Part shown: in pieces, positions 6,512-49,443 of the stretch | Layout: each line of letters opens with the position of its first letter | Numbering within the stretch: position 1 is the stretch's first letter | Origin: a virus | Taxonomy: Duplodnaviria > Heunggongvirae > Uroviricota > Caudoviricetes | Strand: one strand, 5' to 3' | Virus record (IMG/VR): IMGVR_UViG_3300037400_003880 | DNA: 64,000 nt | Notes under the pieces: generated by a model | What the model was told of the DNA's origin: nothing | Database searches by the model: none | What the model saw: the letters and a program-made list of their open reading frames with translations, nothing else | Program-made: the position numbers and the translations under genes

Positions 6512-9500
6512 TGCCAAATATAAGTTATTAGACAGAAAATAAATATATAGACTCTTATGGCGATGTTTATTATTTATTAAATACCCTAATAGGTTATGGA
6601 TTATCTCGTGCTATTATGATGATGATGAGAGAGGGCGAGAAAATCAGTGAAGATTTAAGAAGTGAACTTATTAAGAAAATTGATATTGATAATTTTCAAA
6701 TACCAGATAGTTGGAATCTTTCTGTAAAAAAGATAGAAAAAGATATTGAGGATACAGTTAACGATACTTAGCTTGGAGATATTTTTATAGGAGATATAAA
6801 AAAAGGAAATGCAGGAGTTAATTTTACAAATTGTCTGGTAGAAGAAGATACAGATGGTACAAAAAAGGTTGTAAAACCTTGGAAAAATTTTACTCATTAG
6901 ACTTATCGAGAAGTAAGAAATTATGACGCATATATCAGAAAAAATAATAAATGGAAAGAAACTCCAGAATTATTGGCGGGAGAAAACCTCGATTTTACTA
7001 ATTATTATGGAGAGAATTTTAAACAAGATCTTGAAGAAAGACTGGGCTTAAATCTTTTAATGCCGTAGTATAACAGAGTTGTATAGATAGAAGATTTAAA
7101 TAGGAATTTTTGGGTAATTAGTTAGGTTTTATCAGGATTATCTTCTTTTTTGTTTGGGCCGAGCAAGATAGGTGATATACTAAAAGAATTAATTTTAGAA
7201 ATCGCTCATTTATGGTCTAATGTTGCACTCTTATGGCTTATATCAGAAGGGGAAGATGATGCACTATTTGATACATATTATGAATTTGCTACTTTAAATA
7301 ATCAAGGCTTTATGCACATGAATTATGATTCTTATAATTCACAGTCTCTTGATGATCGAATTAGAGATTTGTTTGATGCAGTTAAAGAGTCTCATCCGCG
7401 AGGTCATATTGTTCTTTTAGTTGAAGTGCGAGACAAGCATTACTGGGAAAATTACTATGCTCAGGTTTCTTATAAGCTATGCGTATTTTCTCGTTATGAT
7501 GGTCATGAATGGATTGTTGACTTATCTTTTAATAAAGGCGATGTTACTTTAGGAGAAGATGGCACTAATGAAGGTATCTTAGCAGAAAATGAAAATGGGC
7601 GTTTAATTACAGAAGGTAATGCAACTCATAATTATTTAAGGAGTACTGAGTTTAGAAAAAATAGTTGTGCATATAGGAGAGATGGAGATAAGTATTCTTT
7701 CATTTATCCGTTTATTAGTCTTACAAATATGAAAAATGATTGGGATTATATGCTTAATTTAAGAATTGTCCCATCAATTGAATTGGTAAATTTTGTAGAC
7801 ATAAATGGTGTGCAAACTCCACAGTTAAAAATTAGCTTTTTAATAGAAGATGTTGGATATGAAATGTATTCTGGAGAAACTTCAGTAATTTATAAAGCAA
7901 CAACAACAAATGAAGTTGTTTTAATAGAAGATTCAATTACGTTAAATCTTGAAAAATAGGATTTTACTAGAATTAACCCTAATAGAGAAAAATTTTTCTC
8001 TAAAACTGGCGGCTATCGAGGAGAGAATTTAACTTGTTTCTTTCTTAACACTTTAATTGCATTAAATTTCAGTGTAGTAGAGCTTCCAATGCCAGGCTTT
8101 ACACGAACTTCTATCTAGCATATTGATAATAATGGAAATAGAGCAATTCCTATTGAGCTTGATTTTCCTAATTATATTAATGATAATGGTAATATTTTTT
8201 CAAGTGCACAAGGCGTTATAAATAGGACTAAAAATTTCTTAACTAATGTTCTTAAAAATTATGTTGATGAAGAACAAGAATCATTTCAGGAAGCTCTCAA
8301 TGAAATGCCTGATGAATTAAAAGTACAATTATTAGATGAAAACTAGAAGCTTAAGACAGAAGATGATGCTTTAGACGTTATTATTATTACTTGCAAATAT
8401 CCATATAGATTGTGGCATTACAATCAAGATGAATCTTATGAAAATATTTTTTATGATTATGACGAAGAGAATAACAAAATTTAGAAGATTAAAATTACTC
8501 ACGGCGGTCTGAAAAAGAGAGGCAATGGAAGAAAAGAAGGCGAATATGTAGTATATGATGGAGATATAGATAATGCGGGTAATGTATTAAACTACGCTAT
8601 GAGTAATCTTGGATATTACCTTCTCATTTGTAAAAAGAAAAAATCTACTAATGGCAGATATTATTATGAGTGCGCCGCCATTGAAGATTACTATTATATT
8701 TTCACCCTTCCAGAAGAGCTTATTAACTATGCTGGCGTCTATGAAGATCCCGTAAAATTAGGTATCTTTAGAAATGAAGACCCAATTCTCTTTTAGAGTC
8801 CAGATGGGAAAAATTGGATTATTAAATGGGTAAGAATTTCTGGTGGACTTATTGGTTTTCAATGGAGAGATAAAGATTTTATCTGGTATGGAAAAAACGG
8901 ATTAAGCACTAATGGTAATAATGATTCCTCACGTGACGCTTATGTTAGAAACGAAGGCTCCGTAAGAGTTCTTCAGTATAATAATGATGATGATGATATT
9001 ACCAGAGTTAATCTATTTAAAACATTTAATGATGAAGTTACAGAAGCATATCCTGATTTAGTAACTGAAGAAAAATTCAGTACTAATTTAACAGGATAGA
9101 ATAAGGAATTAAAAGGGATTATAGGAAGAGTATAGACTAATTACATAAGCTTTTCGATGTCAGAAGAAGATGAGGAAAAAGTATCTTGGTGTGCAAGAAT
9201 GTAGTCACGAAACACTGATTTGTATGAAAGATTTTATTTAGATGCGAGAGTCGATTCTCCAAATGGGATGAGAGATTTTGGGAACTATTATGAAGATTAG
9301 TGGTAGGATGTTAATAATCTTTTATGGGCACCGGGACAATCTAGATATGAATATGTAGATTAGTGTTTAAATTGGTCTGCCGGCACATTAAAAAAGACCT
9401 CTGATGAAGCTGGTAATTATAAAGATGGCGGTTGGAGATTGTTTGGAACATGGTATCTTAAAACAGGTGAGACAATGCCTGGAGAAGAGAATGATAATGC

Positions 9501-9615
9501 TAGTGCAGCATTTGCTGATATGGAAGCAGCCATTGAAACAGATTATGTATTAATGAGTAAACTTCCTATATATGATTATAGCGTAGATCCTTCTACCGGA
9601 ATTACGGAGGGATAA
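6511..9615 (+). CDS. very large hypothetical protein (about 1034 aa, about 17 in-frame TAG); paralog family member A
   Basis: ATG overlaps the holin stop. A single frame runs through track ORFs 7150-7959 and 8599-8796 to TAA 9613-9615 and contains only TAG stops. Carries the motif EDLNRNFWVIS. Confidence 0.55.
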
Positions 9616-9616
9616 A

Positions 9617-11224
9617 ATGGCAGATATAATTAGTTTACAAGAAATTCTTGATGAATGTTATAGTAATAAAGAGAGTCGTGAACGTCTTGACTTATTGCTA
9701 TCTTCAATAAAGGTTTTCTTTAATTAGATTTATGATCGTTTTTCTGGAAATGACTCTGGTGGAGTTAATCTCTAGATAAAAAAGAATATCAATTCTGAGA
9801 TTAATGATAGTTACTATCAAGACATTAAAAAATCTGATTTAACTGACCTTGAAGAAGGAAATGAAGCTTCTTAGCAAGTTTATTCAGAAGTTGGATCATG
9901 GAATCATAGTGTTGTTGATTTATTGAATGATGTTCTTTTAATAACTAAAGAGGGCGATTCTACCTATAAAGTAATTGAAAATGAGTATGAAGATGATAAG
10001 GGAACTTATAAAATAATTTTCTATAAGGGAGAAAATGAAGATGTTGGAGTTCCCTTTCATGGCGCCATTAAGGTTGATATGCCAGAGGATTAGAAAATTA
10101 TTTATAAAGGTAAGGAATATGCTTTATATTATAGAATAAAAGACATATCTAAAGCAGACGCGGGAGCATCATTTAATAGAGAAGACGGCATTCCCTGGGT
10201 CATTCCATTTCACAATAATAATGGAGATATATATACTTCTGTTAGAACAGATGAAATTCTATCTGCTTTAGAGTATACTGACTATTTAAAACAAACTTAC
10301 GATGAGATTAAAAATGATATAAATAAAAACTATGTAAATTTATTAACTGATTTATATTAGAGACAAGTTGAAGTTGAAGATTTAGATAGAGACTTTTGGG
10401 TTATTAGTGAAGTAATCACTGCAATACTTAATTATTTATTTAACAACAATGGTCTGTTTGGAATTTAGAAAGGAATTTTAAATGAGATAGCATAGCTATG
10501 GTAGAATATTATTTATCTATGGTCTTTGCATGAGAAAATGAATGAAAAACCAGAAGGGCTTTATACTCACAAAGAGTTCATTTATATTGGGAGGAATTTA
10601 CGATATGGCCAATTTAGATATGATTTAGGCGGCGAGGACGATGAAGAATCAATTAAAGACTATCTTAGATAGTACAAAAAATCATATTTAAGTTGTAACT
10701 TAGTTTTAATTCCAATTGTTCGTAAAGATTATTATGAAGAAAATTTCTATCAGACAGAAAAAATTCCTTTTATTTATTATTATGACAGAGAAAAAGATGA
10801 AGAAACTTTTGTCCGCTTCAAATGGAATCCTGAAGTGCTGGAGGATAAAGCTTTTCCAATTATCACTGAAAACAAGCTCGAATTAAAAATAGATACTTTT
10901 TCTGATTTATTAGAAAATCATTATTACACTGATAATAATGAAGACTGGGAATAGATTCTAAGTCCTGATTCCGGACAATACCAACTGCTTAAAATTTCGC
11001 CATATTTTACAGAAAATGGTGTAATGTTAAAAGTATAGACGATTGAGCAAGGATCAAGATTGACTCGTTGTGAAATTTCTTTTTCTACAAATTTAAATGA
11101 TAAAGACTCTGAAAACAGAATGATAGTAAGATGTGTTTTAGTTAATGAATAGATCTCTATAGCAGAACCCGTTCAGGTGTCCTACTATTAGGGTGAACTA
11201 TTGAGTAAAAGGAGTGAAGATTAA
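9617..11224 (+). CDS. large hypothetical protein (535 aa, about 13 TAG); paralog B (EDLDRDFWVISEV)
   Basis: ATG at 9617 lies 2 nt after the previous stop. The frame stays open through TAGs to TAA 11222-11224. Confidence 0.55.
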
Positions 11225-14031
11225 TGAATAGATTCATTATAGCTCCTGAAATATGGAATGAAATAATGAATAAAATATCGGATAGTTATGAAGGAGAAAT
11301 ATCTAATAAGATTGACCCCTTTTAGAGTGAAAGTGAAGCGCCAACTGTTGATAAATTTTTTGATATAGAGCTTTCTAACTTTTGGAATAAATCTGTTCAA
11401 GACTTATATGATGATTGGAAAGAATATTATGGAGAAGAAGACCATGCAATAAATATAAATGGTTTTACCCATAAGATTAAAGAATTTGCTCATGGAGACG
11501 CAGGATATGATTTTAATAAACAGTATGTTTAGCCACAATTAATAGGGTAGAACAATAAGTATTCTCCAGATTTTGTAGCCGCGGCGCAAGACAGTAAAAA
11601 TTTACAGTTTACTAATACTTAGCTTAAAAATAACAATTACACCTATAGGCTTTTAATGCCTAAAAATATAAGACGTGTTGAAGCAGAAGATTTAACAAGA
11701 AACTTCTGGGTTATTTCTTAGGTATTAAATGGAATAGTTAACTTCCTTTTTACTGACAATTCTCCTTATGCAAAATTTTATGAAGGGATAATTAAAGAAT
11801 TAAAAGAATTGTGGGAGAATGTTTTATTTTTATGGTTTAATGCAGAAATGCTTGGTAAGCAGAAAGTTGCAGAAGGTCTGCATATAGAATTTGTTCCTAT
11901 TGATAGTGACTCTCCATATAAAAGATAGTTTGATAACTATACCGAAAGAGAAAAAAGCGAAGAAGAAATATTAGAAATTTTAAAAGACTATTATTATAAA
12001 TATCCTGAATCAAATCTATTATTAATTCCCTATTCGCGCTCTGCTCCATTTTATCGAAATTATCATACAACTTTAAAATTTTATTTGTTATGCTTTTTTA
12101 TTAGAAAAAATAACTATGAAGTAAATAGTTGGGATGATCCAAAATGCAGGAAAATTAAAAATTTTACTAAACCTCTTGAAATTGATATTAATAATTATTT
12201 AGAAAATATTACAGCAATTAGGGAGAAAGGAAAAATACTTAGACTTGGAAGACCATTATCTAAGGTTCCTAATTTTGAAGAAAATGATGAGGGAATTTAC
12301 TATGGACAAATAAGAGTTGTTCCAGATATTAAGATTAACGATGATATAAATAATCTTGGTATAACAATGAAATTATCATTATATGACGTTGGAGAATATT
12401 ATCGCTCTGGCGAAGAGGATATAAATTCTGAAAACACATTATTACAAGCATTTTATTTTACTTGTTCAGAAAAGCAAGACGAAAGTATTGAGTATGTAGA
12501 AAGTGAAATCTTTCCAAAAAATCCTCTGCCATTTTTCAATTATCCAAGAAGAAATTATGGAGGATATAAAGGAGAAACTTTAACGACTATTCGTCACAGC
12601 ATAAAAAAAAGAAACTATATTGCTGGAGAAAAGACTTCCATTTCTTTAAAGGGAGATTTGTTTAGAGTTGGAAACTTTATGGGAGAGCTTCCTGAAGAAA
12701 ATAATGTTATTAGAGAAGGTATTTATGAATTTAGAGAACAAATTAATGATAGCCATACTCATACCAATTATTTGACAAATATTGGAATGGGTGGTTTTTA
12801 GAATGGCTCGCCTGCGCCTGAAAACTGGTCTAAACTAGGCGGAGCAGAATGGATGCCTAATGAAAGTTTATTTTACACTCCCGTAGCAAGAGAAGAGTCC
12901 AATATTAGAAAATCTCCGCAAGATAATGTTGAAGATCCATGGACTTGGGGAGGTAGCGCGACAGAATTCCATTGGACATGTATAGATGATTCTTCAAGTG
13001 GAACAATCCCTGATGATTATTGGGATAAATTAATAGCAGGAGATTCTAGTTTCATTGAAAGAAATACTTATAAAGTAGAAGAAGTTACTAAACAAAGTAT
13101 AAAATACATTGGATTAGTAACTTTAAAAAGATTGCTTTTAAATAATAATTATTTAAGATATTTAAAGAAAGTCAGGGCAATAGATTGGACTCTTGATGAT
13201 CCTATTACTTTTATGGGAGCATATGGAGTAGACACGTGGGGCGGAAAAGGAGTAGGAGATAATGGAAATGTTGCTGATTAGTTATATTGGGCAACAGTTA
13301 TTTTATCTGGTTTATATATATTTCTTCCTGAGAAATTCCTTGATTATGCAAAAGATTTTGAGAAGACCTACCCTATTAATATAGAAATTAAATAGGGTGA
13401 AAAAAATTTAGGACGTCTTTTCTTTTTAAGAGAGATAAATAAAAGTGAAATAAATTTCGGAAACCCAGATGAATATCTTAAAAGGGTAGGTGGCGTTCCT
13501 TGGAGATTAGTTAGAAATATTGGTAATAGTGAAGTTGGTGTAAACTACGTTGAAATTTTCGATGAAGAGCAGAGACTATTAGGATATATTGGGCTTTCAC
13601 AAGATGAAAGTAAAGAATATGAATAGACAATGGATAAAAACCGGTATGTTACAAATTTAATTAATAATTCTGCTGCAAGATTAAAAACGAAAGATGAAAT
13701 ATTAGTTGAATTAATTAATGGAGTATTCTCTTCAAATAATGGTATTTGGAGAGTTTATGACGGAAATGATACAAATGAAGAAGGCAATAAATCAGATTAT
13801 CTAAATTATAGACAAGTTGTTGATGCACGATATAAACTTAATGGTTCTGGAGCACAAGAGACTCTTGGTTTTAGTGCAATTGCTATAAGAAGAAGAGATA
13901 CTACATTATTTACTAATGTGGGTAATTCAACAGATCCAAACTTTGAAGAAGCAAGTAATTTGATTTGGTCAAATCGCGGCTTAATGCCAGACAGCGGAGG
14001 ATATTCTGGAAATACTTGGAATTAGGGGTGA
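11224..14031 (+). CDS. large hypothetical protein (935 aa, about 12 TAG); paralog C (EDLTRNFWVIS)
   Basis: ATG overlaps the previous stop. The frame joins track ORFs 12085-12801, 12853-13281 and 13630-14025 across TAGs and ends at TGA 14029-14031. Confidence 0.55.
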
Positions 14032-14037
14032 GAATAA

Positions 14038-14316
14038 ATGTCAGAACTTTTCAATGAACAAGTATCTTCTCATGCTCCGATTCATTCAGATGCTTATAAA
14101 TGGGAGGAGTCCAATAATGGACTCCCTCCTTTTAAAGAAATTCTATTGAATGGATAGATTGAGGAGGATAAGATTTATTTTATAGAAGATTTAAGTGGTG
14201 AATCTGGATTCTTTTAGAAGTTACTATTAGAAATAGAAGACAGGATTGAAAGACTTGAAGAGCTGATTGAGGAAGCTAGTCAAATAAGTTCAGATAATTA
14301 GGGAGATGAAAGCTAA
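14038..14316 (+). CDS. hypothetical protein (92 aa, 3 TAG), acidic and coiled-coil-like
   Basis: ATG at 14038 runs to TAA 14314-16 and overlaps the next ATG. Confidence 0.45.
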
Positions 14317-16682
14317 TGGGTATGATATTTAGAAATGGAGTTGCTTTTGGTGGGCAAGGAGGAACAGATCCTATTTCTGCTGATAGTAATTAGGTAATTA
14401 TAGGAGATGGAGCAGATTGGGCTCATGGCGGCCCACTAAAAATTATAGAAACAGAAGGAGATTTTTTTGTAAAAGATAATTATAATAGCAATCTTAGGAA
14501 TATATACATCACTTCATTGCAAGATTCCCCGGAATCTTATTATAATAGAGATACCGGCGAGACTTATTTATTTGAAGCGTATTCCTTTGGAAGCCTGCCA
14601 AAACTTACTTCAAAAAAAGACTCTGACGGTCATTATAAAGAAGTTTATTCTCAAGATACTTTTTTAAAACTTAATAGCACTTCTAAAATGCTTTTAAGCG
14701 GAAAAACGGATATTCTCATTGGGGCGCAGGAATGTCTTCCTTACTCTTCCAATGCTATGGAAACAAAAATTAAAATATTCGATGGCGCAGATATTACAAT
14801 TACTGGAACTCGCTTAACTAGTACAAGAGTTATTACAGATGCGAAATAGATAGCGAGACCAAAATTACGAGCACATGGAGAAATAAATATAGATATTGAT
14901 GATGGAAATCGAATTTGGAGAAATTGTACACACTATTCTTATTTTAATGGGGATAATTCTTCTAGATATGCATGGGGAGATGAAAGTGATATTGATATCA
15001 TAGGGCCGGTTTTCTTAATTCACGACTCTCCTACTTTTCATATTTCTGGCTCTCCTTATCTTAATATAACAGATACTCCAGCCTTTTTATTAGGTGGAGA
15101 AGGATCTTTAATAGTTAGAGATTAGGCAATTTGTTAGGTTGAGAATGGTTCGTGCTTTTATATGGGACATGATAAACATGAGAGTGGATCTCCGATATTA
15201 GAGCTATATGGGGCAAGTCGAATTAGGGCGCAAGCGCTTGATAATGAAAAATATGGTCCATTACTTTCTATTGAAAGTTCCATGCTTAGTTTTTATGGAC
15301 AGGGAAACCAAGAAAAATCTAAAGCGATCCATAATAAAAAAGACCGTCCTGAAGACTATCGAGAGTGGGCGTAGAAAAGTAAAGCAACGGCAGATTTTCT
15401 TTAGTATATTAAAAATTTAACCTTCCCTCTTGACGAAGAAGAGGATAGTGAAGAAATTCAAGAAATTAAAAGGTTATGTAGTTATTGCTTTGGGCACAAT
15501 ACTGTTACTGATCTTTATCCTAACTATTCAGCCAAAAATTTTTATAGAATAGCTGATGGTGATATTGCGTCATTTTTAAGTAATTATCTTGAAATATCTT
15601 ATAATCCAACTTATGAAATTGAAAAAAATTCTCTTTCAAAATATATAAACATTTATTATCCGACAGATATAAAAATTTGGGATGCATATTCATATTCATA
15701 TTAGGATGAAAGGTATAATATTATAAATACAAATGGATCCATTGAAAGTCGTATTGGAGAAAATGTTGGTTTTGGTATTAGAAAAGTTACTAATCCAAAT
15801 CATAATAGAGTTTTGCTCCACTATTGTACGGATATGAGCAAAGTATATATTGAAATAAAATATTCAAAAAAAAGTTACTCTGATTTAGGAAATTATTAGT
15901 CTAATTTTGTAAATTATTATAATCATAAAGTTTCATGCTCTTATCTTCCTGATAAAGTAACAGATAATTACCCAATAGTAACAGACCCTTCTTCATATCC
16001 GATTGGAGAAAATTATGATGATATTTTATCAGAGCATAATGCAAATAAACCAGCATCAATATATGACCTTCTTTTTATTACCTCTAATGGAAAAGTTTAT
16101 TATAGAAAAGGAAATTGGTCACAATTTTTAAACTCAACAACTTCTAATTATGATTCTTTCTTAAGTAAACACGCAAACGAGCTATCAATTGATGCAATTC
16201 CTCAACTTAGATTCTATGGAAGTACAGGTTTTGATATCGGCGGTTTTGGTAGTACTTATCTTAGAATGGGTAGTCGAGACGGCGGAGTTATTGAAACTTA
16301 TATGCTAGATAATTGTAAATTTGAATTAAGAGATGATGCAGTTTTAGACGTAAGAGGCGCGACACAAAATAATGAAGTTTATTTTTCTAAGCCTGATAAT
16401 GGTGCTCTTGTCGCTGCATATGGAAAATCTACTTTTATTCTTGCTGGTATCGGCGATGGTAGATCAAAAAATTTACCTTCAAATTATTATGAAAAGAATA
16501 ACGGTTTTCCTTTCTTAGGGCTCTTTGATAATGCTGAATTGAGATTGGCAGATGGATGCTTTATTACAGCAAAAAGAGAGTCTGGATAGGCGACCTTTAC
16601 TTTCGGAGATAATATGGCTGGAGCATCGGTTTCTTTTACTATGGAAGACCTTTATCATTTAAAAGCATTATTAAGTAATTGA
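14316..16682 (+). CDS. large hypothetical protein (788 aa, about 10 TAG)
   Basis: The frame joins track ORFs 14517-14849, 15162-15374 and 16266-16589 across TAGs and ends at TGA 16680-16682. Confidence 0.55.
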
Positions 16683-16727
16683 CTTTTAATAAAAAATATA
16701 TTATAATAATTAAAAGAGGTGATAGTA

Positions 16728-17819
16728 ATGTATCGTATGGGTTCAGATGGCGGTGAATTTTATTCTTTCATCGCAACAAATTCATTACCAATTGGATATT
16801 CCGATGGCGCACCATTTATGTCTGCCAATAGACCAGTACCTTCTTTTAATTCAAAAGAAAAAATTTTAGGACAAACTTATGGATATATGGCTAATAGGGG
16901 AGAGCTCCGCTCTTCCCAAGCCTTTGATTCTCAAGAAAAAATGTACTCTCTTGGGAATAACTGGGTTTGTCTTGCGGTCGCAAATTATCAAAAGACATAT
17001 CACTCAACGGATATTCATGCGGATTATGTAAAAACTCCGACAGATAGGGATATTGCGGCATTTGTTGAGAATGCTCACAAGCGTGGGGTTAAAGTTTGTC
17101 TAAAGCCGATGGTAAATACAGAAGATGGAGTTTGGAGAGCACATATCGGTTTTCCAGATTTACATTCTGGAGATATGGATTATTATTGGAAATTGTGGTT
17201 TATTAGCTATAAAAATTTCCTACTCCATTATGCAGAACTCGCGCAAGAACTTAATTGTGAAATGTTCTGTATCGGCTGTGAGATGATTGGTACAGAGCAT
17301 CGTAAGTATGATTGGCTATATCTTATTGATGAAGTTCGCAGAGTTTATAGTGGTAAAATTGTATATAATACAAATCATGACAGAGAAGATGCACAGGATT
17401 GGTTTGACACTCTTGATTATATTGCAACTTCAGCATATTATCCAGTTGGAATAAATGGACTTAATGAAGATGCAATGATTCGAGAATGGAATAAAGTGAA
17501 ATGGCGATTAAATGCAATTGCTGATAGCAGGAAAAAGCAATATATTTTTATGGAAATTGGCTGCCGTTCTGCAAAAAATTGCGCAACAGAGCCATGGGAC
17601 TTTAATACACATATGGAGCCAAGCTTAGAGGAACAAGAGCTTTTTTATAAGACTTGTTTAAAGACTTTTATTGATGACCCACATTTTGCTGGTGTATTCT
17701 GGTGGGACTGGCCCACATATCTCTACCCAATTGATGCCGCGGCGCAAGATACAAGTTATTGTATTTATGGTAAACCAGCAGAACAGATAGTTAGAAACTA
17801 TTATAATAAGGTGAAATAA
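16728..17819 (+). CDS. TIM-barrel glycoside hydrolase-like protein (GH5/GH113-like; possible depolymerase)
   Basis: AAAGAGGTGA ribosome-binding site, then ATG at 16728. The ORF has no TAG. Motifs VKVCLKPMV, EMFCIGCEMIG and FWWDWP look like a (beta/alpha)8 hydrolase. Confidence 0.55.
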   Translation: MYRMGSDGGEFYSFIATNSLPIGYSDGAPFMSANRPVPSFNSKEKILGQTYGYMANRGELRSSQAFDSQEKMYSLGNNWVCLAVANYQKTYHSTDIHADYVKTPTDRDIAAFVENAHKRGVKVCLKPMVNTEDGVWRAHIGFPDLHSGDMDYYWKLWFISYKNFLLHYAELAQELNCEMFCIGCEMIGTEHRKYDWLYLIDEVRRVYSGKIVYNTNHDREDAQDWFDTLDYIATSAYYPVGINGLNEDAMIREWNKVKWRLNAIADSRKKQYIFMEIGCRSAKNCATEPWDFNTHMEPSLEEQELFYKTCLKTFIDDPHFAGVFWWDWPTYLYPIDAAAQDTSYCIYGKPAEQIVRNYYNKVK

Positions 17820-18326
17820 TGGCGAATAACGATGATATTATTTATGATATAATTAATAAAGAAGTTAAGTCTGATTTACCTCAAGGGTCTGGAGAAAAAG
17901 ATTACAATTTTGTCTTTACAGGTTTTGATGATGAAGCGTATCATTAGGGTAATAAGCCATATGTCTTTATTGCTAAGCTAACAAATAAAAAAAAGGAAGA
18001 AATTTAGTCTCGCGGCGCCACTCTCGCTCAAGAAAGTGATGACAAAGGAGTCCTTTTTGATTGGGGAGAGTTTATCTGGCATTTTGACTTCTATTATGAT
18101 GACTATATGGAAATGCTAGAAGCCGGAGAAACAAAAGACGGAAGAATTTATTTCACAAGAATAGATGATAATGAAATCATTAATTCTCCAGGAAGTACAA
18201 TTACAGAATAGGAAATGGCAATAAAAACGAGGTCTTTTAAAAAGGTAGATTATAAAGACTTACTTACAAGAATTATTACCGATATTAATGAAGCAGATGA
18301 CATTCTGAATAAAAGTCAACCTTAAA
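17819..18326 (+). CDS. hypothetical protein (168 aa, 3 TAG)
   Basis: ATG overlaps the previous TAA. The frame runs through three TAG codons to TAA 18324-18326 and is followed by a rho-independent terminator. Confidence 0.5.
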
Positions 18327-24390: not shown

Positions 24391-24826
24391 CTTTGAAAGG
24401 ATTACTGAACTGAAGAAGCAGTTAAAAGAAATAAGCGAAGAAGGAATGAGGAAAACTCAACTGCAAATTAATATACAGCAGGAGCTTAATCGTTTACAGA
24501 GAGATAGACTAACGCCACTGGTTGGGAAATTTTTTGCTTCTAAAGCCAGATATTTTATGGTAACTGATGTACCGCAAGAGATTCTTACTATGTATGGAAC
24601 TCATTTGAATAGCCATCAAATCCCTATCTATTCTCTTTGCGTTGACGAATCTGACGGAGATTATGGCGAACTGGGAGAAGAAACACTTCATTCTAATTGC
24701 ATCGAACAGGATGATATTTTTGCGGCTTTTATCGCGGAAGGGAACACTGAAATTACAAAAGAAGAGTTTCTTAATAAAGTAATGAGTGTCGTTAACGACG
24801 TTGCTGATAAGGGGAAGAAAGAATGA
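24383..24826 (+). CDS. hypothetical coiled-coil/acidic protein
   Basis: GGAGGAG ribosome-binding site, then ATG at 24383 (MNNFERITELKK). Confidence 0.5.
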   Translation: MNNFERITELKKQLKEISEEGMRKTQLQINIQQELNRLQRDRLTPLVGKFFASKARYFMVTDVPQEILTMYGTHLNSHQIPIYSLCVDESDGDYGELGEETLHSNCIEQDDIFAAFIAEGNTEITKEEFLNKVMSVVNDVADKGKKE

Positions 24827-26400
24827 GTGCGATTGTTGTAAATTTGTTTGGCGCGGCAGGTTGTGGAAAATGCTTCACAAAAGGAACTAAAGTTCTTATG
24901 TGGAATGGTGAAGTAAAAAATATTGAAGATATTTATGTTGGAGATTGGGTCATGGGAGATGACTCTAAACCAAGAGAGGTATTGGAATTACACAGAGGTA
25001 GAGCGCCGCTTTATTTATTAAAAAGAAGTTTTTCTAAAGATATTATTGTAAGTGCTAACCATATTCTATCTTTAATGAATTATCACAGGGATGGATCTTG
25101 GTCTTATGAAGATATTTCTATAGAAGATTTTCTTAATAAAAGTCTTAATTATCAGCGCAATTCAAGATTGTATAAGACATCTGTATCTTTTTCTACAGAA
25201 GCTGAAAGGAATAATCTTAAAATTGATCCGTATTACTTAGGCTATTGGCTTGGAGACGGCTTATCAGATACGATAAATCGTTTTTGTACCGCGGATGAAG
25301 AGATTATTGACTATTGTCGAGAATATGGAAGGAGAATTGGGTTGTCTCTTAAACAACATTCTTACAACGACGGGAAGTGTCAAACTTATTGTCTATCGGA
25401 GGGAAATATTGGCAATCACTCTTTCCATCCATTAAAAGGAAATATTTACAATCTTCGAAATAATAAGCATATACCAACAGAATATAAAACAACAACTTTG
25501 GAAAATAGACTTGCGCTTATTGCTGGTTTAATTGATTCTGATGGTTCTCTTAATAATACATCTTATGACTGGATAAATAAAAATAAGACTTTAGCTTTTG
25601 ATTTTTATCAGCTTGTTAATAGCTGTGGTTTAAGAGCTACAATAAGAGAATGCACAAAAAGTTGTGGAGATTTTTCTGGAACTTATTATCGAGTTAACAT
25701 AACTGGAGATTTAAAAATGATTCCAGTAAAAATAAAACGAAAAATTTGTTTGAATACTATACAGGATCCATCGAAAGTTTTAAGAGAAAGCTTTAAGGTA
25801 ATTCCCATTGGAGAAGGGGAGTATTATGGTTTTACTACTGATGGAAATCATCGTTTTGTATTAGATGACTGTACAGTAGTCCATAATTCAACTGCCGCGG
25901 CATATGTATTCTCTCAATTAAAAATGAGAGGAGTTAATTGTGAACTGGTTACTGAGTATGCGAAAGATTGTACTTGGGAAAATAGAGAGATGGTATTAAA
26001 TTGTCAAGAATATATTTTTGGAAAACAGTCTTATAGGTTAAAGCGATGCGCCGATAAGGTGGATGTAATTATTACTGACAGCCCTCTTCCTATAGGATTA
26101 TTTTACAATACTGATCCCGCATTGGATGATAATTTTAAGAATGTTGTTATGAATATTTATAATAAGTATTGTAACGTGAATTATCTTTTGACAAGAGTTG
26201 TGCCATATGACCCAGTTGGTAGGAATCAGACTCAAGAAGAAGCAGATATGATTGGGGATAAGATTCAAGATTTTCTTGATGATAATGATATTCCTTATGT
26301 TCATGGGATAGGGGATATTGATTTTTATAATCTTATCGTTAATCAAATTGTTTCAATATTAAAGCTTATAGAGGAAGAGGAAGAGGAGGCGAAAGAATGA
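24823..26400 (+). CDS. P-loop nucleotide kinase (dNMP-kinase-like) interrupted by an intein
   Basis: The Walker A motif GAAGCGK-[intein]-STAAAYV is split exactly at the K/S junction. The exteins together give about 186 aa with VIITDSP. Confidence 0.75.
   Translation: MSAIVVNLFGAAGCGKCFTKGTKVLMWNGEVKNIEDIYVGDWVMGDDSKPREVLELHRGRAPLYLLKRSFSKDIIVSANHILSLMNYHRDGSWSYEDISIEDFLNKSLNYQRNSRLYKTSVSFSTEAERNNLKIDPYYLGYWLGDGLSDTINRFCTADEEIIDYCREYGRRIGLSLKQHSYNDGKCQTYCLSEGNIGNHSFHPLKGNIYNLRNNKHIPTEYKTTTLENRLALIAGLIDSDGSLNNTSYDWINKNKTLAFDFYQLVNSCGLRATIRECTKSCGDFSGTYYRVNITGDLKMIPVKIKRKICLNTIQDPSKVLRESFKVIPIGEGEYYGFTTDGNHRFVLDDCTVVHNSTAAAYVFSQLKMRGVNCELVTEYAKDCTWENREMVLNCQEYIFGKQSYRLKRCADKVDVIITDSPLPIGLFYNTDPALDDNFKNVVMNIYNKYCNVNYLLTRVVPYDPVGRNQTQEEADMIGDKIQDFLDDNDIPYVHGIGDIDFYNLIVNQIVSILKLIEEEEEEAKE
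24871..25887 (+). mobile_element. intein (339 aa) with a LAGLIDADG homing endonuclease domain
   Basis: Begins with Cys1 (CFTKGTKVLMWNGE, Hint block A) and ends VVHN, followed by Ser+1. Two LAGLIDADG motifs are present (YLGYWLGDGL and LIAGLIDSDGSL). Confidence 0.8.
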
Positions 26401-27491
26401 GTTTTCCTGTAATGATTATCGTAGCAGTTATTATAGGCGGTTTAGCAGGAGCATTAGTTTATTTTATTACTAACAGACAGTCTGCAAAGAAGTTACCAAG
26501 AATTAACTTTAATGAGGCACAAGAAAAAGCAGTCCAAGGACTACAAAAAAAGAAGGACGCTTATGAAAAAGAGATGACTTAGGAAGCTCGATAGGAAGTC
26601 GCAGACTTTCTTAATAAGCTGAATGCAGAAAAGTGTAAGTTGTCAGATGAACTTACGGAATCTATCTGTGACCTTGAGGAGAAAAAACATTAGAATGAAA
26701 TGGCTTTAAAGCAGGCTGAACACGACTATTAGGAAAATGTTAAAGCCATGTAGAAGATTTGGCAAGAGTAGGAGAGCGCGGCGTATGAACGTAGGCGTGC
26801 AGATAATGAAAAAGTAATAGAATAGTTTGAAGCAGAAAAGAATGCCGAACTTGAGAAATTAAAGGTTAGTTATGGGCATAAAGAAAAGGGGCTGACTGAA
26901 GATTTTTTAGCATATAGCGCCGAGGTATCTATGAAAAGGGAGGCATTGACTAAGGAAATTGAAGCCTATGAAGCTCAACAGCGTGCCATAATAGAACGCT
27001 TTAAGAAAGATGAAGAGACAAGACAGTAGGTGGATTTTTATAGAATGATTTTATCAGAAAATGAAATTTTTGATATTAAAAAAATAAGAAGTATTGCTGA
27101 AGATTTACATAATCCTATTATTTTATATAAATTAATCTGGGAGAATTTTTATAAAAATAAATTTTCTGAATTAGTGGGAAGAGTTGCCGGAGATAAAAAA
27201 TGTGGAATTTATAAGATTACGAATCTTAAAAATTAGAAAAGTTATATTGGGCAGACTAGGTAGTCTTTTAAAGAGAGGTGGCGCACTCATGTAAAAAGAG
27301 GACTTAGAGCAGAGCCAACAACAAATAATAAATTATATTCATCTATGTGGGAAGACGGTGTGGAAAATTTTACTTTTGAAATAATTTGTTAGTGTTCTCC
27401 AGAGGAACTGAATGAACAAGAAAAACGCTATATTGCTTTTTATAATGCTTTGGAGTGGGGATATAATTCGACAGGGGGAAATACAAAATGA
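26397..27491 (+). CDS. membrane-anchored coiled-coil protein with C-terminal GIY-YIG nuclease domain (364 aa, about 12 in-frame TAG); could be two genes
   Basis: An N-terminal transmembrane helix is followed by a Q/E-rich coiled coil read through TAGs. The C-terminus GIYKITNLKNQKSYIGQT...RxxxH...E is a GIY-YIG motif. A GTG at 27030 or ATG at 27045 could start a separate GIY-YIG ORF. Confidence 0.5.
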
Positions 27492-27493
27492 TA

Positions 27494-28538
27494 ATGAGCA
27501 TTTATAATTAGAAAGAGCCTGTATCGGGTATCTATAAAATTGATAAAACCCGACTTGCAAACGATTGGTGTCTTGTACTATTGCCCATTAAAAGGCACGT
27601 ATTTTCGCAATTGCTCCAATACGAGCGAACGAAACACAAAATATTGAAAATGTTCAATCGTATGATTTGGGTGCAAATTATCGCAGAAACGTGTAACTTT
27701 TACCAACCAACTGCAAGTCGGGATTTAAATTGATTTTCCCAATGGAAAAAGCTATATTGGACAAAGCAACGATATTATTCGTAGAATAAGAGAGCATAAT
27801 TGTTCAAATAATAATTATCCAATTTCTCGTGCAATAAAAAAATATGGTAAAATTATTACATTTGATTTATTGGAACAAATATAGCCTGATCAAAAAGATT
27901 TAATGAATGAGCGAGAAAAATTTTATATAGAATATTATCATACAACAATTAAAGAAAAAGGTTATAATATCTCTTTGGGCGGCGGAGGCTATAAGAGAGA
28001 GATTCCTGATAAAATAATAGAGTTACAAAAAGATATTATAAACTCAAGTTATACATTTAAAGAATTAAGTGAGAGATATGGAATAGATATTTCTACAATA
28101 TCAAAGATAAATAATGGAAAAACATATTTTAATGATGCTCTTACTTATCCTCTTAGAAGTGAAAAGAAATATCACTCTCAAGTTTTGAGTGAAAATGAAA
28201 TAAATAAAGTTCGTTTTGAACTAAAAAATAATTATAAAAAAAGTATGTCAGAAATTAGTGAAGAATATCATACTAATATATCAATTATATAGAGAATTAA
28301 TAAGGGTATATCTCCTTATAAAAATTCAGATTATGTTTATCCAATAAGAAGTAAAAATAAAAATTTTTGTAAATTTACTTTAACTGAAGTATTAGAAATT
28401 ATATCTTTATTAAAAAATACAAATTTAACTTAGATAGAAATAGCTAAAAAGTTTAATTGCAACAGGAAGATAATAGGACAGATAAACTCTGGACAAAAAT
28501 ATTATATTGAAGAAGTAGAGTATCCAATTAGAAAATGA
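27494..28538 (+). pseudogene. GIY-YIG homing endonuclease (I-TevI/Seg-like) interrupted by a 190 bp insertion after the GIY motif
   Basis: Exon-like part 1 (27494-27547) encodes ..SGIYKIDK. Part 2 (from 27735, a different frame) encodes FPNGKSYIGQSNDIIRRIREH..KYG..GYNISLGGGG plus a C-terminal HTH repeat region. The frames are reconciled only if about 187-190 nt are removed. Confidence 0.6.
27545..27734 (+). mobile_element. MITE-like insertion (about 190 bp) with about 15 bp terminal inverted repeats and an 8 bp direct repeat
   Basis: Terminal inverted repeats AAAACCCGACTTGCA and TGCAAGTCGGGATTT. Flanking direct repeat AAATTGAT at 27537-44 and 27727-34. The element sits inside the GIY-YIG coding sequence. 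Confidence 0.55.
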
Positions 28539-34161: not shown

Positions 34162-34893
34162 ATGTCTAAAGTTCATGAGTTAACCGGACAATAGTTCGGA
34201 GAATTAAAAGTTTTATATCGTAATGGAAGTAAAAATGGGCGAGCACTATGGCGATGTTTATGTTCTTGTGGAAAAGAAATTGATATTACTGGCAATAAAT
34301 TATTAACTGGTCATAATAAGAGTTGCGGTTGTGCTTCAAATAAGTTAAGAAAAGAAAATTTAGAAGATTTAACAGGGTAGAAATTTTCTTTTTTAACCGT
34401 AATTTCGCAAGATGAGATGGACCATAAAAATGGTAGAAGATATTGGATTTGTCAATGTGATTGTGGAAATAAAACTGTAGTATGTACAAATCATTTAAAG
34501 TCTGGAGCTATTCAAAGTTGTGGTTGTATCAAGTCCAAAGGAGAAATGATTGTTTCTTAGCTCTTAAGAGAAATGAATATCCCTTTTGAAAGATAGAAAA
34601 GTTTTCGTGAATTAGTAGGAGATAAAGGAACTGCACTTAGGTTCGATTTTTATTTGAATGATATGAATATTCTAATAGAATATCAAGGAGAATAGCATTA
34701 TCAAGAGACAAGAAATTGGGAAAATAGAAATAATTTTTCTCAACGGCAGAGGTATGATTAGTTAAAAAGAGATTATTGTATGAATAATGGAATTACATTA
34801 ATTGAAATCCCCTATACAGATTTTAAATAGATAAATAGAGATTATTTAGAAAAGAGGTTAAAAAATGTATCCAGAAAAGAAAACTTGGTATAA
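34162..34893 (+). CDS. Cys-repeat zinc-binding plus DUF559/Vsr-like nuclease-domain protein (243 aa, 8 in-frame TAG); paralog 1 of 3
   Basis: GGAGGGAG ribosome-binding site. Repeats LTGQ.FG.L.V...W.C.C.CG...CGC. The C-terminus RFDFYL..IEYQGEQHY...RQRYDQLKRDYC..I.LIEIPY is readable only through TAGs. Confidence 0.55.
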
Positions 34894-37186: not shown

Positions 37187-37223
37187 TATTATAGAAAAAT
37201 GAAATAAAGGGAAGGGAGAAGAA

Positions 37224-37550
37224 ATGAAAAAGCTATTGATTTATATTGGAGAAGGCGGAGTAAATGGTCAAGCATATGGGTGTGATTGGTACCTTCACCT
37301 TAAAGATAGGTCTGAGTTTGAGGAGATGTTAGTTGCGGCAGAAGAGCCTGAGTGTGGTTATGATGGTTTCGTAATTCATTTTGATGGGCTTGATTTAGAT
37401 AGTTTATTCTGGATGATTCATAGCGGTAGAGTGACTAATAACTACGAAGTCAGAATGCATGGAAGTAAAGAGGATTATAAGATTTTCAGAGCAATAGTAG
37501 ACCATGAGTGGAAGGATCAAACAGGCTGGTTTAGGAAAATAAAGGTGTGA
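37224..37550 (+). CDS. hypothetical protein
   Basis: Track ORF with GGGAGGG ribosome-binding site. Confidence 0.5.
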   Translation: MKKLLIYIGEGGVNGQAYGCDWYLHLKDRSEFEEMLVAAEEPECGYDGFVIHFDGLDLDSLFWMIHSGRVTNNYEVRMHGSKEDYKIFRAIVDHEWKDQTGWFRKIKV

Positions 37551-38613: not shown

Positions 38614-38853
38614 GTGGTAATAATGTTAAATATTGTAAAAAATGGCAGCGTTGAAGAAATAGAAAAATGTCAAAGACAGACTAAAGAATTTTTTTGTAAG
38701 AATTGCGGCTGTATTTGGGAAGCAGACAAGGGCGATTATAAAATTGAACATGGCTTAACAAATACGATTTATATTGGAATGCCTTGCCCTTTTTGTGGAA
38801 AGTATACTTACTATGAAAAAATTTTATTTGAAGGAGATATTGATGAAACTTAA
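38614..38853 (+). CDS. small zinc-ribbon protein
   Basis: CxxC..CxxC. Confidence 0.45.
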   Translation: MVIMLNIVKNGSVEEIEKCQRQTKEFFCKNCGCIWEADKGDYKIEHGLTNTIYIGMPCPFCGKYTYYEKILFEGDIDET

Positions 38854-39241
38854 CGAACCGAAAGTTGAAATTGTTCGCCGCGGCGTTAACCCAACGGTAG
38901 ATTTTACTTTCTCGGATAATTTTTGTCCATGCTGTGGGACAAATTGCCAGAAAATACAAGTCGAAAGATTTACCAGAGAGGGGTTCCTTTTTACTTATTA
39001 TGGGCGAAAAGCGACGATTAAATGTCCCTCTTGTGAGACTGTTTTCCAGAAAGAGATTTGTGACAATAAGGGATTAACAAACCTTTCTGATGCCGTTTTT
39101 CTTTTTTCAATGATAATTCTTATGCTATCCATTTTAAGCCTTATTATCTTTTCTGCTTTGAATATTACAATTGGAACTGGATTTTCTTTAGTTATTGTAA
39201 TTATTTCTTTTGCTGTTTGTGGTGCGGCGGCTTCAGATTAA
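38843..39241 (+). CDS. membrane protein with N-terminal zinc ribbon
   Basis: GAAGGAG ribosome-binding site, then ATG at 38843. Confidence 0.45.
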   Translation: MKLNEPKVEIVRRGVNPTVDFTFSDNFCPCCGTNCQKIQVERFTREGFLFTYYGRKATIKCPSCETVFQKEICDNKGLTNLSDAVFLFSMIILMLSILSLIIFSALNITIGTGFSLVIVIISFAVCGAAASD

Positions 39242-39253
39242 GGAGGGTTTATA

Positions 39254-39571
39254 ATGAAAGATTTTGTTCCTGTTGATAAGATTAGAGTTCAAACACGGCT
39301 AAAGCGGGATGAATTCTGTGCGAAAGAAAAAGACTGGGTAATCAACTATATCAATACAAAGATGGAGGCAGCGGCGGACAAGGGATATTCCGAGGTTACT
39401 GTCGATTTATCCGATAGTTTTGACTATATTGACCTGTATGATTTTGCTCAAACTCATATTCAAAAACGTCTTAAAGAGCTCGATTATGGCGTTTATGTAA
39501 ATCCGCCAGAAATGGATGAAAGCGGATGTAGAAACATTAAGATATATATTGCTTGGGGGATTGAAGAATGA
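39254..39571 (+). CDS. hypothetical protein
   Basis: Track ORF with AAGGAGGG ribosome-binding site. Confidence 0.5.
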   Translation: MKDFVPVDKIRVQTRLKRDEFCAKEKDWVINYINTKMEAAADKGYSEVTVDLSDSFDYIDLYDFAQTHIQKRLKELDYGVYVNPPEMDESGCRNIKIYIAWGIEE

Positions 39572-44372: not shown

Positions 44373-45275
44373 ATGATTGGAAAATGGAATAACTTTTCAA
44401 AAGAAGAAATTGAAAATATTTATGCTTAGTCTAATAGTTTTATTGAAGTGGCTAAAAAGTTTGGGTATAAAAGTACAAATGGTTAGCTTAATAATAAATT
44501 AAGATTGCTAGCAAAAGACTTCGGCATTAATTATTTTCATTTAGAGCCAAATTAGAGATTAGATTTAGTTGTTGGAAATATATACGAAGGATTGCAGTAT
44601 ATAGAAGATGATAAGGATAAGAAACATTATGTGATATGTAAGTGTTTAAAATGTGGACAATAGACCAGCATTTATAAATACAATTTAGGAAAACAAAAGA
44701 CGTGCGGATGTAATAAAACTGAAAAGTTTTCAAAGACTATCCAGTTGGAGGGATGTAAAATTGGAAACTTTAAAGTAATCTCTTTAGATAAAGAACTATC
44801 TCTTTAGAAAAATAAAATTTACTGGAGTTGTAGATGCAACTTTTGTAATGGGATAAAAAGTATTGAGTCATATAGATTAAGAAATAATCCTCCCTATAGT
44901 TGCGGCTGTATCAGTCTAAATTCTAAAGGAGAATAGAAAATCGCAGATGTTTTAAGAGAAATGAATATTTCTTTCAAAAGAGAATATAGTTTTACAAATT
45001 TTTTTGACTTTATTGGACATCCTTTCCGCTTCGATTTTGCAATAGAGTTTCCTAAACTAATTTTAATTGAGTATCACGGAAAACAGCATTATGATAAAGA
45101 TTATGGCTGGGATGAATCTTATGAAGAAATAGTAAAAAGAGATAAAAAGAAATAGCAATATTGTAAAGAAAATGGCATTCCTCTTATAATTATTCCATAT
45201 ACAGATTATGATAAAATAGATACTAAGTATCTATTGAATATATTAAAAGGAGTTGATAAAAATGCCAAACGCTGA
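44373..45275 (+). CDS. Cys-repeat plus DUF559-like nuclease paralog 2 (about 300 aa, 8 TAG)
   Basis: GGAGGAAG ribosome-binding site. FRFDFAIEF..IEYHGKQHY is readable only with TAG as sense. Confidence 0.55.
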
Positions 45276-48115: not shown

Positions 48116-48190
48116 TGGGGTATCGCCAAGTGGTAAGGCACAGGACTTTGACTCCTGCATCCGTGGGTTCAAATCCCTCTACCCCAACCA
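48116..48190 (+). tRNA. tRNA-Gln (anticodon TTG), CCA encoded
   Basis: U1:A72 acceptor TGGGGTA/TACCCCA. D-arm GCCAAGTGGTAAGGC. Anticodon loop CTTTGAC. T-loop TTCAAAT. Closely resembles E. coli tRNA-Gln. Confidence 0.75.
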
Positions 48191-48193
48191 TAT

Positions 48194-48271
48194 GCCGGTG
48201 AAGCTTAAGTGGTATAAGCACTCCCCTTATAAGAGAGAGATAGATGGGTTCGAGTCCCTCGACCGGCACCA
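48194..48271 (+). tRNA. tRNA, identity uncertain (anticodon loop CTTATAA reads TAT; Ile2-like?), non-canonical T-stem
   Basis: Acceptor GCCGGTG/GACCGGC. D-arm GCTT..AAGC. T-loop TTCGAGT. CCA encoded. The anticodon stem has one mismatch. Confidence 0.45.
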
Positions 48272-48280
48272 ATAAATAAT

Positions 48281-48309
48281 TTGACTTTTTTATGGAAATA
48301 TGGTATAAT
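48281..48309 (+). promoter_or_regulatory. conserved promoter
   Basis: TTGACTTTTTT..ATGGTATAAT. Confidence 0.55.
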
Positions 48310-48330
48310 ATTTATAGAGAGGTGAGAGAA

Positions 48331-48510
48331 ATGACTGTAAAAGATTTAAGCGTAAAGATGGAAGCCTTAATTGAAAATGGTTAGGCTGACATTGAAGTCA
48401 TGGTATATGATATGCATGAGGGGTGGAAGCCTTATGTATATGAGGATACTTCTTTCCATGGCGGAAAGATTTATCTTGGACTTCCTGAAGTGAAAGTAAC
48501 AAGTGAATAA
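48331..48510 (+). CDS. small hypothetical protein (59 aa, 1 in-frame TAG)
   Basis: GAGGTGAGAG ribosome-binding site, then ATG at 48331. A TAG at codon 18 is read through to TAA 48508-10. Confidence 0.4.
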
Positions 48511-48511
48511 T

Positions 48512-48540
48512 TTGACTTTCTAAGAAAAATATGCTATAAT
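48512..48540 (+). promoter_or_regulatory. conserved promoter
   Basis: TTGACTTTCTA..ATGCTATAAT. Confidence 0.55.
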
Positions 48541-48546
48541 ATTTAT

Positions 48547-48614
48547 AGACAGGTCAGCAATTCAAATTTTAAGGACTATGCTTTTAACATAAAATTCTTA
48601 AACAATCTGTCTTG
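48547..48614 (+). ncRNA. Y RNA-like stem-closed element (short, stem-loop only)
   Basis: 5' AGACAGGTCAGCAA pairs with 3' CTGTCTTG. Family motif present. Confidence 0.4.
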
Positions 48615-48654
48615 AAATGGTTCGGCATCACTCCATTCAAAAGCGGTGTCAGAT

Positions 48655-48728
48655 GCGCCTATCGTCTAAAGGTAGGACACTACACTTTTAATGTAGGTAT
48701 TCGGGTTCGAGTCCCGGTGGGCGCACCA
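48655..48728 (+). tRNA. tRNA-Lys (TTT), CCA encoded
   Basis: Acceptor GCGCCTA/TGGGCGC. Anticodon stem CTACA/TGTAG with loop CTTTTAA. T-loop TTCGAGT. Confidence 0.75.
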
Positions 48729-48732
48729 GCAT

Positions 48733-48835
48733 ACGGCAGTTCAGCAATCCACTTTTTATTGCAGCCAAAAATTTTTGCAAGCGTATGGTTCGACTCCTGC
48801 GTTAATTCGGAGACGGTCTCCAAAGGTCTGTCGTG
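48733..48835 (+). ncRNA. Y RNA-like stem-closed element with T-loop-like GGTTCGACTCC and internal GGAGACGGTCTCC hairpin
   Basis: 5' ACGGCAGTTCAGCAATCC ... 3' CTGTCGTG. Family motif TCAGCAA present. Confidence 0.4.
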
Positions 48836-48841
48836 TATTAT

Positions 48842-48932
48842 GTCGAGATGGGTGAGTTGGCTTAAACCAGCGGTTTGCTAAACCGCCGACCGGCACAAAG
48901 CCGGTCCGAGGGTTCGAATCCCTCTCTCGACG
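48842..48932 (+). tRNA. tRNA-Ser (GCT), class II
   Basis: Acceptor GTCGAGA/TCTCGAC. Anticodon stem GCGGT/ACCGC with loop TTGCTAA. Long variable arm GACCGGCACAAAGCCGGTC. T-loop TTCGAAT. Confidence 0.7.
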
Positions 48933-48963
48933 CTTTCAAATTATTGAGAAAGAGGTGAGTCCA

Positions 48964-49194
48964 TTGGGCATAAAAGATTCCAACTGCTGGAAATATTTTC
49001 TGAGTAAAGCTCCATATGATGTTCTTGTAACAATTATGAAGAATACAGGAATTTGTCCAGTTGCCGCTTTGATGGGAGAATTTGACATTAACATATGTCT
49101 TCTTCATCATCCTCATAGAATATTTAAGACTCTTGAGGAAGAAGCTGTTTGTTATGAGTGCCTTCAAAAATGGCTAAACGAAAAAACTCAATGA
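48964..49194 (+). CDS. small Cys-rich protein inside the tRNA array (start uncertain: GTG 48955 or TTG 48964)
   Basis: Track ORF 48955-49194. AGAGGTGA ribosome-binding site. CxxC...CYEC. Confidence 0.35.
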   Translation: MGIKDSNCWKYFLSKAPYDVLVTIMKNTGICPVAALMGEFDINICLLHHPHRIFKTLEEEAVCYECLQKWLNEKTQ

Positions 49195-49195
49195 T

Positions 49196-49224
49196 TTGAC
49201 TTTTGAAGAAAAAAGTGATATAAT
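49196..49224 (+). promoter_or_regulatory. conserved promoter driving the suppressor tRNA pair
   Basis: TTGACTTTTGA..AGTGATATAAT. Confidence 0.55.
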
Positions 49225-49292
49225 TATTATAGTAAAGGCACAAACAGCAAGAATATCGTCCAACCTTAGAACGATACGTGTCTTGGCGAGAT

Positions 49293-49439: not shown

Positions 49440-49443
49440 TGTA

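Follow-up and report, generated by a model that had tools for sequence, protein, structure and literature searches.

A miniature inverted-repeat transposable element, very probably of IS1595-family descent, in a homing endonuclease gene of an uncultured phage

What has thrown the two halves of a homing endonuclease gene into different reading frames in the phage record IMGVR_UViG_3300037400_003880, and is the enzyme still likely to be made? The stretch of DNA analysed here, called the window throughout, is 64,000 nucleotides long, and the GIY-YIG homing endonuclease gene in question occupies positions 27488-28538. It is split between its GIY and YIG motifs by an element of 182 bp. As a first-pass annotation made from the letters alone had noticed, the GIY motif (27527-27535) and the YIG/R/H/E core (from 27735) lie in two different frames, because the 190 bp that separate them from contiguity, namely the 182-bp element plus one copy of a flanking octamer, shift the frame by one (190 mod 3 = 1). 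That annotation favoured a small non-autonomous transposon, a miniature inverted-repeat transposable element (MITE), within a selfish gene, and kept splicing open. Empty and filled sites, a multi-copy family and autonomous IS1595-family insertion sequences (ISs) with the same ends now bear out the transposon, and we are highly confident that the element is a MITE of an IS1595-family lineage, recently inserted into a phage homing endonuclease gene.

Filled and empty insertion sites

The gene starts at ATG 27488, and not at 27494 as first annotated. Its start codon shares an ATGA overlap with the TGA of an upstream GIY-YIG gene, and it ends at TGA 28536-28538. The features of the interrupted locus are as follows.

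27488-27544, plus strand: 5' gene fragment, encoding MIMSIYNqKEPVSGIYKID
27537-27544, no strand assigned: left copy of the target-site duplication, AAATTGAT, abutting the left inverted repeat
27545-27726, plus strand: MITE proper, 182 bp, without transposase-coding capacity, 39% GC
27545-27559, plus strand: left terminal inverted repeat, AAAACCCGACTTGCA (family consensus AAATCCCGACTTGCA)
27642-27659, plus strand: subterminal motif TATTGAAAATGTTCAATC, at a distance of 67 nt from the right terminus
27712-27726, minus strand: right terminal inverted repeat, TGCAAGTCGGGATTT, the same as the family consensus
27727-27734, no strand assigned: right copy of the target-site duplication, AAATTGAT, abutting the right inverted repeat and containing TGA 27731-27733
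27735-28538, plus strand: 3' gene fragment, running from FPNGKSYIGQS through helix-turn-helix (HTH)-type DNA-binding repeats to the TGA

The inverted repeats of 15 bp and the direct repeat of 8 bp were thus correctly recognised at first sight: the former are complementary at 14/15 positions, and AAATTGAT abuts both. The length of 190 bp originally given to the element is right for the element plus one repeat and too long for the element proper. Between the two inverted repeats lie 152 nt of unrelated sequence. When the 64-kb window was searched with the 15-mer at up to two mismatches, only these two matches were found (0.22 expected by shuffling), so that the window holds no further copy at that threshold. 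The segment had also been called AT-rich, but its GC content of 39% compares with 24% in the gene and 36% in the whole window.

The frame of the original start stays open through the element and stops at TGA 27731-27733, after 81 codons, while the sequence from 27735, FPNGKSYIGQSNDIIRRIREH..., continues in frame +1 relative to the 5' fragment. Virtual excision of 27545-27734 (190 bp) yields an open reading frame (ORF) of 861 nt that encodes 286 amino acids (aa) with four in-frame TAG codons, read as Q. The resulting protein matches Pfam GIY-YIG (PF01541; 29.1 bits, cutoff 22.6) and, weakly, HTH models, and it matches PHROG 7168, 'homing endonuclease', over positions 3-276 of 284 (E 4e-25). Since the YIG/Arg/Glu part is out of frame, the insertion is predicted to destroy the catalytic domain and to inactivate the endonuclease.

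Two near-identical phage contigs carry the same gene uninterrupted, with a single AAATTGAT, and they supply the comparison with intact orthologues that had been proposed as a check. One of them, L038, is a phage contig of 38.8 kb that encodes the orthologue P0002 and is colinear with window positions 18314-39259 at 87-97% nucleotide identity; the other, L039, encodes P0001 and shows the same empty site. The alignment with L038 breaks exactly at the element, L038 8404-10057 running up to window position 27544 and 10050-11692 resuming at 27727. The two L038 segments overlap at 10050-10057, and its one AAATTGAT therefore aligns to both octamers of the window. For 40 nt on either side of the insertion site the window, L038 and L039 are identical, and the reconstituted 861-nt gene is identical to each of the two orthologous genes at 856/861 positions, with 0 gaps. 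The window and these two contigs are a filled and an empty site, respectively, with an 8-bp target-site duplication.

The pre-insertion junction obtained by removing 190 nt is GIYKIDFPNGKSYIGQS, which in the protein places GIYKID directly before FPNGKSYIGQS. Uninterrupted orthologues of 286 aa (P0001-P0004) were retrieved at 93-99% identity in a protein search, with distant ones down to ~50%, and all of them have SGIYKI(D/T/V)FPNGK(S/N)YIGQS across the junction; the four orthologous proteins read SGIYKIDFPNGKSYIGQS. The removal of 187 nt that was first proposed, with the junction GIYKIDKFPNGK and GIYKIDK before FPNGK, is contradicted by these sequences, which call for 190 nt and for GIYKID before FPNGK.

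A chance origin of the flanking repeats, which would have left them without other copies anywhere, is excluded by the empty sites, and a multi-copy family exists besides. It is also unlikely that the filled site is ancestral and that the empty ones arose from it by deletion, given that many more distant orthologues lack the insert as well. The insertion was probably recent, because the gene is otherwise 99.4% identical to its intact orthologues and bears no further lesions.

A bacterial MITE family and its insertion sequences

Copies of the same kind were sought with the pattern CCCGACTTGCA-N(140-170)-TGCAAGTCGGG in IMG/VR, metagenome contigs and species-representative genomes, and the pattern was matched by one IMG/VR contig, at least 19 metagenome contigs and at least 17 genome contigs. 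The genome matches come mostly from rumen and gut Clostridia, among them uncultured Ruminococcus metagenome-assembled genomes (MAGs) of the RUG series and Ruminococcaceae bacterium P7, and they include MAGs of Acutalibacteraceae and Oscillospiraceae; RUG13073 and RUG14527 hold two copies each. The search for further copies of the inverted repeat thus gave ~30 in metagenome and bacterial contigs, 162-183 bp long and with AAATCCCGACTTGCA ends, which fall into subfamilies of ~170, 171, 182 and 183 bp. Within a subfamily the copies are identical or nearly so, and they occur at different loci and in both orientations. An 8-bp flanking duplication (at most one mismatch, fixed offset) accompanies 11 of 29 copies, and a repeat of at least 7 bp flanks 22 of 29 if the boundary may move by a few bases. 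All these targets are AT-rich, and virtual excision leaves most bacterial copies without a long open frame across the site of insertion. Rumen and gut Ruminococcus, Oscillospiraceae and other Clostridia carry this lineage in abundance, and the window copy has the ends and the overall length of the family.

Six GC-rich matches (L014, L016, L018, L019, L031 and L033) were set aside as unrelated sequences that contain the palindrome by coincidence. Two of these, both GC-rich environmental contigs, repeat a palindromic unit, CTGCAAGTCGGGTTTACCCGACTTGCAG, every ~180 bp (L018 942-1150 and L031 1208-1420); they are unrelated to the MITE and have the core palindrome in common by chance or convergence.

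In IMG/VR the family is scarce. Apart from the window, the core palindrome pair occurs in one viral contig, L001 (IMG/VR UViG 3300001598_000507, 10365-10562), in which a perfect inverted repeat of 21 bp, AAGTCCCGACTTGCACAGTGT, divergent and longer, bounds an intergenic insert that lacks a clear target duplication; L001 may be a distant relative, of uncertain membership. A 24-mer from the interior of the window element gave 0 matches in IMG/VR, and a search there for inverted-repeat pairs at spacings of 108-138 and 168-198 returned L001 again and nothing else. Neither the element nor the 2-kb region had a blastn match among GenBank phages or PLSDB plasmids. Such an insertion had been described as rare in phage genomes, which agrees with one further (uncertain) family match in 2.9 million IMG/VR contigs and does not hold for MITEs at large, which have been found in ~2500 viral sequences (PMC11602168).

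Autonomous ISs with the same 15-bp ends as the MITEs were found in lengths of 1102, 1103 and 1119 bp. On contig L036, which also has a 163-bp MITE, the 1102-bp IS (1040-2141) is bounded by AAATCCCGACTTGCAAACGGTGT and its inverted copy. The IS has a single ORF of 336 aa, which matches Pfam DDE_Tnp_IS1595 (PF12762, ISXO2-like) over residues 154-300 (29.1 bits, cutoff 27) and the IS1/IS1595 N-terminal zinc domain NF050000 over residues 60-90 (CPFC...CKCG; 30 bits, cutoff 28). This transposase has 1525 homologues at E<=1e-20, many with precomputed PF12762 annotation and many on contigs of ~1.1 kb, as expected of an active repeat. The 1119-bp IS was found at seven different loci (L041-L047) and encodes transposase P0170, 79% identical to the 336-aa ORF; the 1103-bp IS encodes transposase P0153. 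Duplications of ~8-9 bp surround 3/8 IS copies.

The 1119-bp IS has the ends AAATCCCGACTTGCAAACAGTTGGT and ACCAACCGTGTGCAAGTCGGGATTT, which agree with those of the window element at 22/25 and 24/27 positions, similarity extending from the left end to 27569 and from the right end inward to 27700. The plus strand of the element corresponds to the transposase-sense orientation of these related ISs. The autonomous IS has a motif, TTTTGAAAATCCCAAATC, at a distance of 67 nt from its right end, and in several MITE subfamilies the motif recurs 67-68 nt from one of the ends; TATTGAAAATGTTCAATC of the window element matches it at 13/18 positions, which is weak by itself and notable for position alone.

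Two arrangements concern the spacing of family members. On L036 the MITE copy (626-788) lies within ~250 bp of the autonomous IS, and on L017 a MITE at 1775-1937 is followed by another family end from 1952, ~15 bp away. Both suggest clustering or nested insertion of family members.

Competing readings and a probable route of insertion

If the insert were a small self-splicing or otherwise spliced intron, the endonuclease would still be made. The remainder of the gene is intact, removal of 190 nt (or 187 nt) restores the frame, and the sense-strand RNA folds better than its shuffles (z = -3.8). The antisense strand folds more strongly still (z = -5.3), and the better-than-shuffle fold of both strands is that of the inverted-repeat stem, with nothing else in it. 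Neither a gathering-threshold scan of the whole window against Rfam nor a scan of 27300-28000 at E<=10 gave an intron or ribozyme match, only tRNAs and noise. The first-pass annotation had rightly remarked that the element is too short for a typical group I intron and lacks a terminal G: at 182 nt it is below the typical sizes of both group I and group II introns, and the terminal G / U-G boundary of group I is absent. Moreover, homing does not duplicate an 8-bp target, the bacterial copies lie in both orientations and mostly without a long open frame spanning the site, and the family ends are common to ISs that encode a transposase. Splicing has thereby become very unlikely. Programmed translational bypassing on the pattern of T4 gene 60, with take-off at the first GAT/ATT of AAATTGAT and landing on the matching codon of the second octamer, would likewise rescue the protein; identical 8-nt sequences flank the gap, and the endonuclease frame is open through the element until the TGA in the second repeat. 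The gap of T4 gene 60 measures ~50 nt and those of the yeast mitochondrial examples 27-55 nt, so that a gap of 190 nt would be about four times longer than known cases. The take-off site is not followed by a stop codon, and a target-site duplication, which is seen at unrelated sites in bacterial contigs too, fully accounts for the repeats. The probability that we give to bypassing is close to nil.

Several observations do weigh against assigning the element to an IS1595-family lineage that transposed into the phage. The interior of the window copy has no significant similarity to any sampled bacterial subfamily or to either IS. Position 4 of its left inverted repeat is A, and the family has T. 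The 336-aa ORF scores 64.4 bits (E 1.3e-17) with the NCBIfam IS1595 transposase model NF033547, which has an equivalog cutoff of 75, and several IS copies lack clean duplications, perhaps owing to recombination or to chimeric assembly of metagenomes at repeats. Finally, we infer, and did not observe, both the transposition into phage DNA and the identity of the host. Derivation of the window element by deletion from a sampled IS was considered and rejected, the interior similarity being not significant. Only the terminal 25-27 bp and the weak positional motif are common to the family; the direct source of the window copy is therefore unsampled, and the copy constitutes a subfamily of its own. 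These points leave some room for a MITE mobilised by a different transposase family, or for an inert relic of recombination with host DNA that never transposed into the phage: the interior matches no sampled IS or MITE subfamily, the link to IS1595-type elements consists of the terminal 25-27 bp, and the NCBIfam score is under the equivalog cutoff. However, the sister phages have the octamer once and the window has it exactly duplicated, which is the mark of transposition and not of homologous or illegitimate recombination. The 8-bp length fits the IS1016 group within the IS1595 family, which generates 8-bp duplications (PMC10045372), and two independent IS types with these ends encode transposases of the same family. 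A different enzyme or an inert relic is thus distinctly unlikely.

For the IS1595-family MITE, insertion could have proceeded as follows. A transposase acting in trans would bind a MITE copy at its two AAATCCCGACTTGCA ends. A 1.1-kb IS on the chromosome of the infected host would be the most likely source of this enzyme, because the phage window encodes no such transposase (tblastn of an IS1595-type transposase against it gave a best E of 0.04). The MITE would then insert into the AT-rich 8-bp target AAATTGAT in phage DNA, where staggered cuts and repair would duplicate the target. With its GC content of 24% and its dispensable product, the endonuclease gene may have been both a good and a tolerated target. 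Promoter or terminator cargo in the element was looked for, and nothing above background was found.

A further proposal, which we consider rather unlikely, is that the window copy represents a phage-resident MITE lineage spreading among TAG-recoded rumen phages by means of IS1595-type transposases borrowed from their hosts. It draws on the unmatched interior, the functional-looking ends and the positional subterminal motif. Were it true, such a lineage would prefer AT-rich, dispensable selfish genes and could shuttle between hosts in phage particles.

Phage setting and comparison with known systems

The window is phage DNA. It carries genes for an endolysin (PHROG 15001, E 2e-86) and for homing endonucleases (PHROG 7168), and a colinear contig carries Thy1, a UvrD helicase and other genes of this sort. 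Two further features bear on the interrupted gene:

26397-27491, plus strand: upstream gene in tandem with the interrupted one, 364 aa with TAG read through, with a C-terminal GIY-YIG domain
49293-49439, plus strand: pair of adjacent tRNA genes, both with anticodon CTA, which belong to an array of 19-20 tRNA genes at 48116-54750

Both GIY-YIG genes contain in-frame TAG and no in-frame TAA or TGA, and the TAG positions of the endonuclease read Q in orthologous database proteins. The two tRNA-CTA genes would explain the in-frame TAGs of the endonuclease genes, and TAG appears to be a sense codon in this phage, so that these TAGs are probably not signs of decay. TAG-rich ORFs make up the structural block at 1322-18325 and recur at 26397-27491, 34162-34893, 44373-45275 and 60970-61884. 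The codon is concentrated in structural and endonuclease-like genes, and most others (replication, nucleotide metabolism) have none or few. In the tRNA array, ARAGORN gave an anomalous two-base anticodon loop call ('ca') for the tRNA at 53143-53215, which scores 41 bits with the Rfam tRNA model. In the upstream 364-aa protein the nuclease domain is preceded by a transmembrane-like segment at the N terminus and by a long, charged stretch resembling a coiled coil, an architecture that is unusual among homing endonucleases and is conserved in L038 and L039.

Other differences from L038 are of different kinds. At 24823-26400 an AAA_28-type ATPase gene holds an intein of 339 aa (segment ~24872-25884; Cys...His-Asn, LAGLIDADG-like blocks) that splits the Walker A motif (P-loop) between GAAGCGK and ST; L038 has an uninterrupted 182-aa gene. 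L038 lacks about 349 bp that the window has at 37200-37548; they contain a small ORF (ATG 37225, ~105 aa), with an AT-rich, promoter-like region on one side and the next gene on the other. The segment has no inverted repeats and is therefore a small gene gain or loss, not a MITE. The stretch 38843-39259 aligns twice to L038 20251-20861, at 97% and 77%, which points to a local duplication or to small paralogous genes side by side.

For annotation, the locus is one recently disrupted homing endonuclease gene, neither two ORFs nor an intron-containing gene, and its in-frame TAGs are to be read as sense codons. The element also gives a clue to the host, because rumen and gut bacteria of the Ruminococcus/Oscillospiraceae type carry the same MITE family together with IS1595-type ISs; its ends would thus tie this uncultured, apparently TAG-recoded phage to such bacteria. 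As a worked example, the locus combines empty and filled sites with the duplicated target and the parent IS: a transposon, most likely from the host, has struck phage DNA, one selfish element disabling another.

Among known systems, the closest likeness is to the bacterial MITEs of the IS1595 family (IS1016-group-like). These are short and non-coding, as is the element of 182 bp described here, with an 8-bp AT-rich target-site duplication, with the ends of ISs that encode DDE_Tnp_IS1595 and an N-terminal zinc ribbon, and with many near-identical copies in host genomes. In contrast to them, the window copy is a subfamily apart and lies in a phage, not in a bacterial chromosome. In the literature searched, no name was found for the family with AAATCCCGACTTGCA ends in rumen Oscillospirales.

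Viral MITEs (vMITEs) common to phages and their hosts have been reported in the ~2500 viral sequences mentioned above, with new host links that include Ruminococcus (Nadal-Molero et al., Nucleic Acids Research 2024, PMC11602168). The element of the window resembles them as a host-type MITE in a phage genome, usable for inferring the host genus or family, and differs in its intragenic position in a homing endonuclease gene, in the empty site of sister phages and in the TAG recoding. The cluster-based matching of that study might miss the window copy, since it matches host copies at its ends only.

Phage group I introns and inteins also interrupt phage genes as presence/absence polymorphisms. 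Unlike the MITE, which would inactivate its gene, they are excised from the RNA or the protein and leave the target unduplicated, and the MITE has none of the conserved features of group I introns or inteins. The mycobacteriophage elements MPME1 and MPME2, which Sampson et al. reportedly described in 2009, are said to be ultra-small mobile elements of ~440 bp that encode a small ORF. They too would be small, non-autonomous elements with short inverted repeats and with presence/absence polymorphism between close phages, although their ends and insertion signatures are other than those of the window element. To our knowledge no cognate host IS is known for the MPMEs; one has been identified for the window element. 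MITEs common to phages and hosts are already documented, and the present case is neither a new kind of element nor an intron; to a specialist it will not be surprising, and it stands as a fully resolved case that is useful for host inference and annotation.

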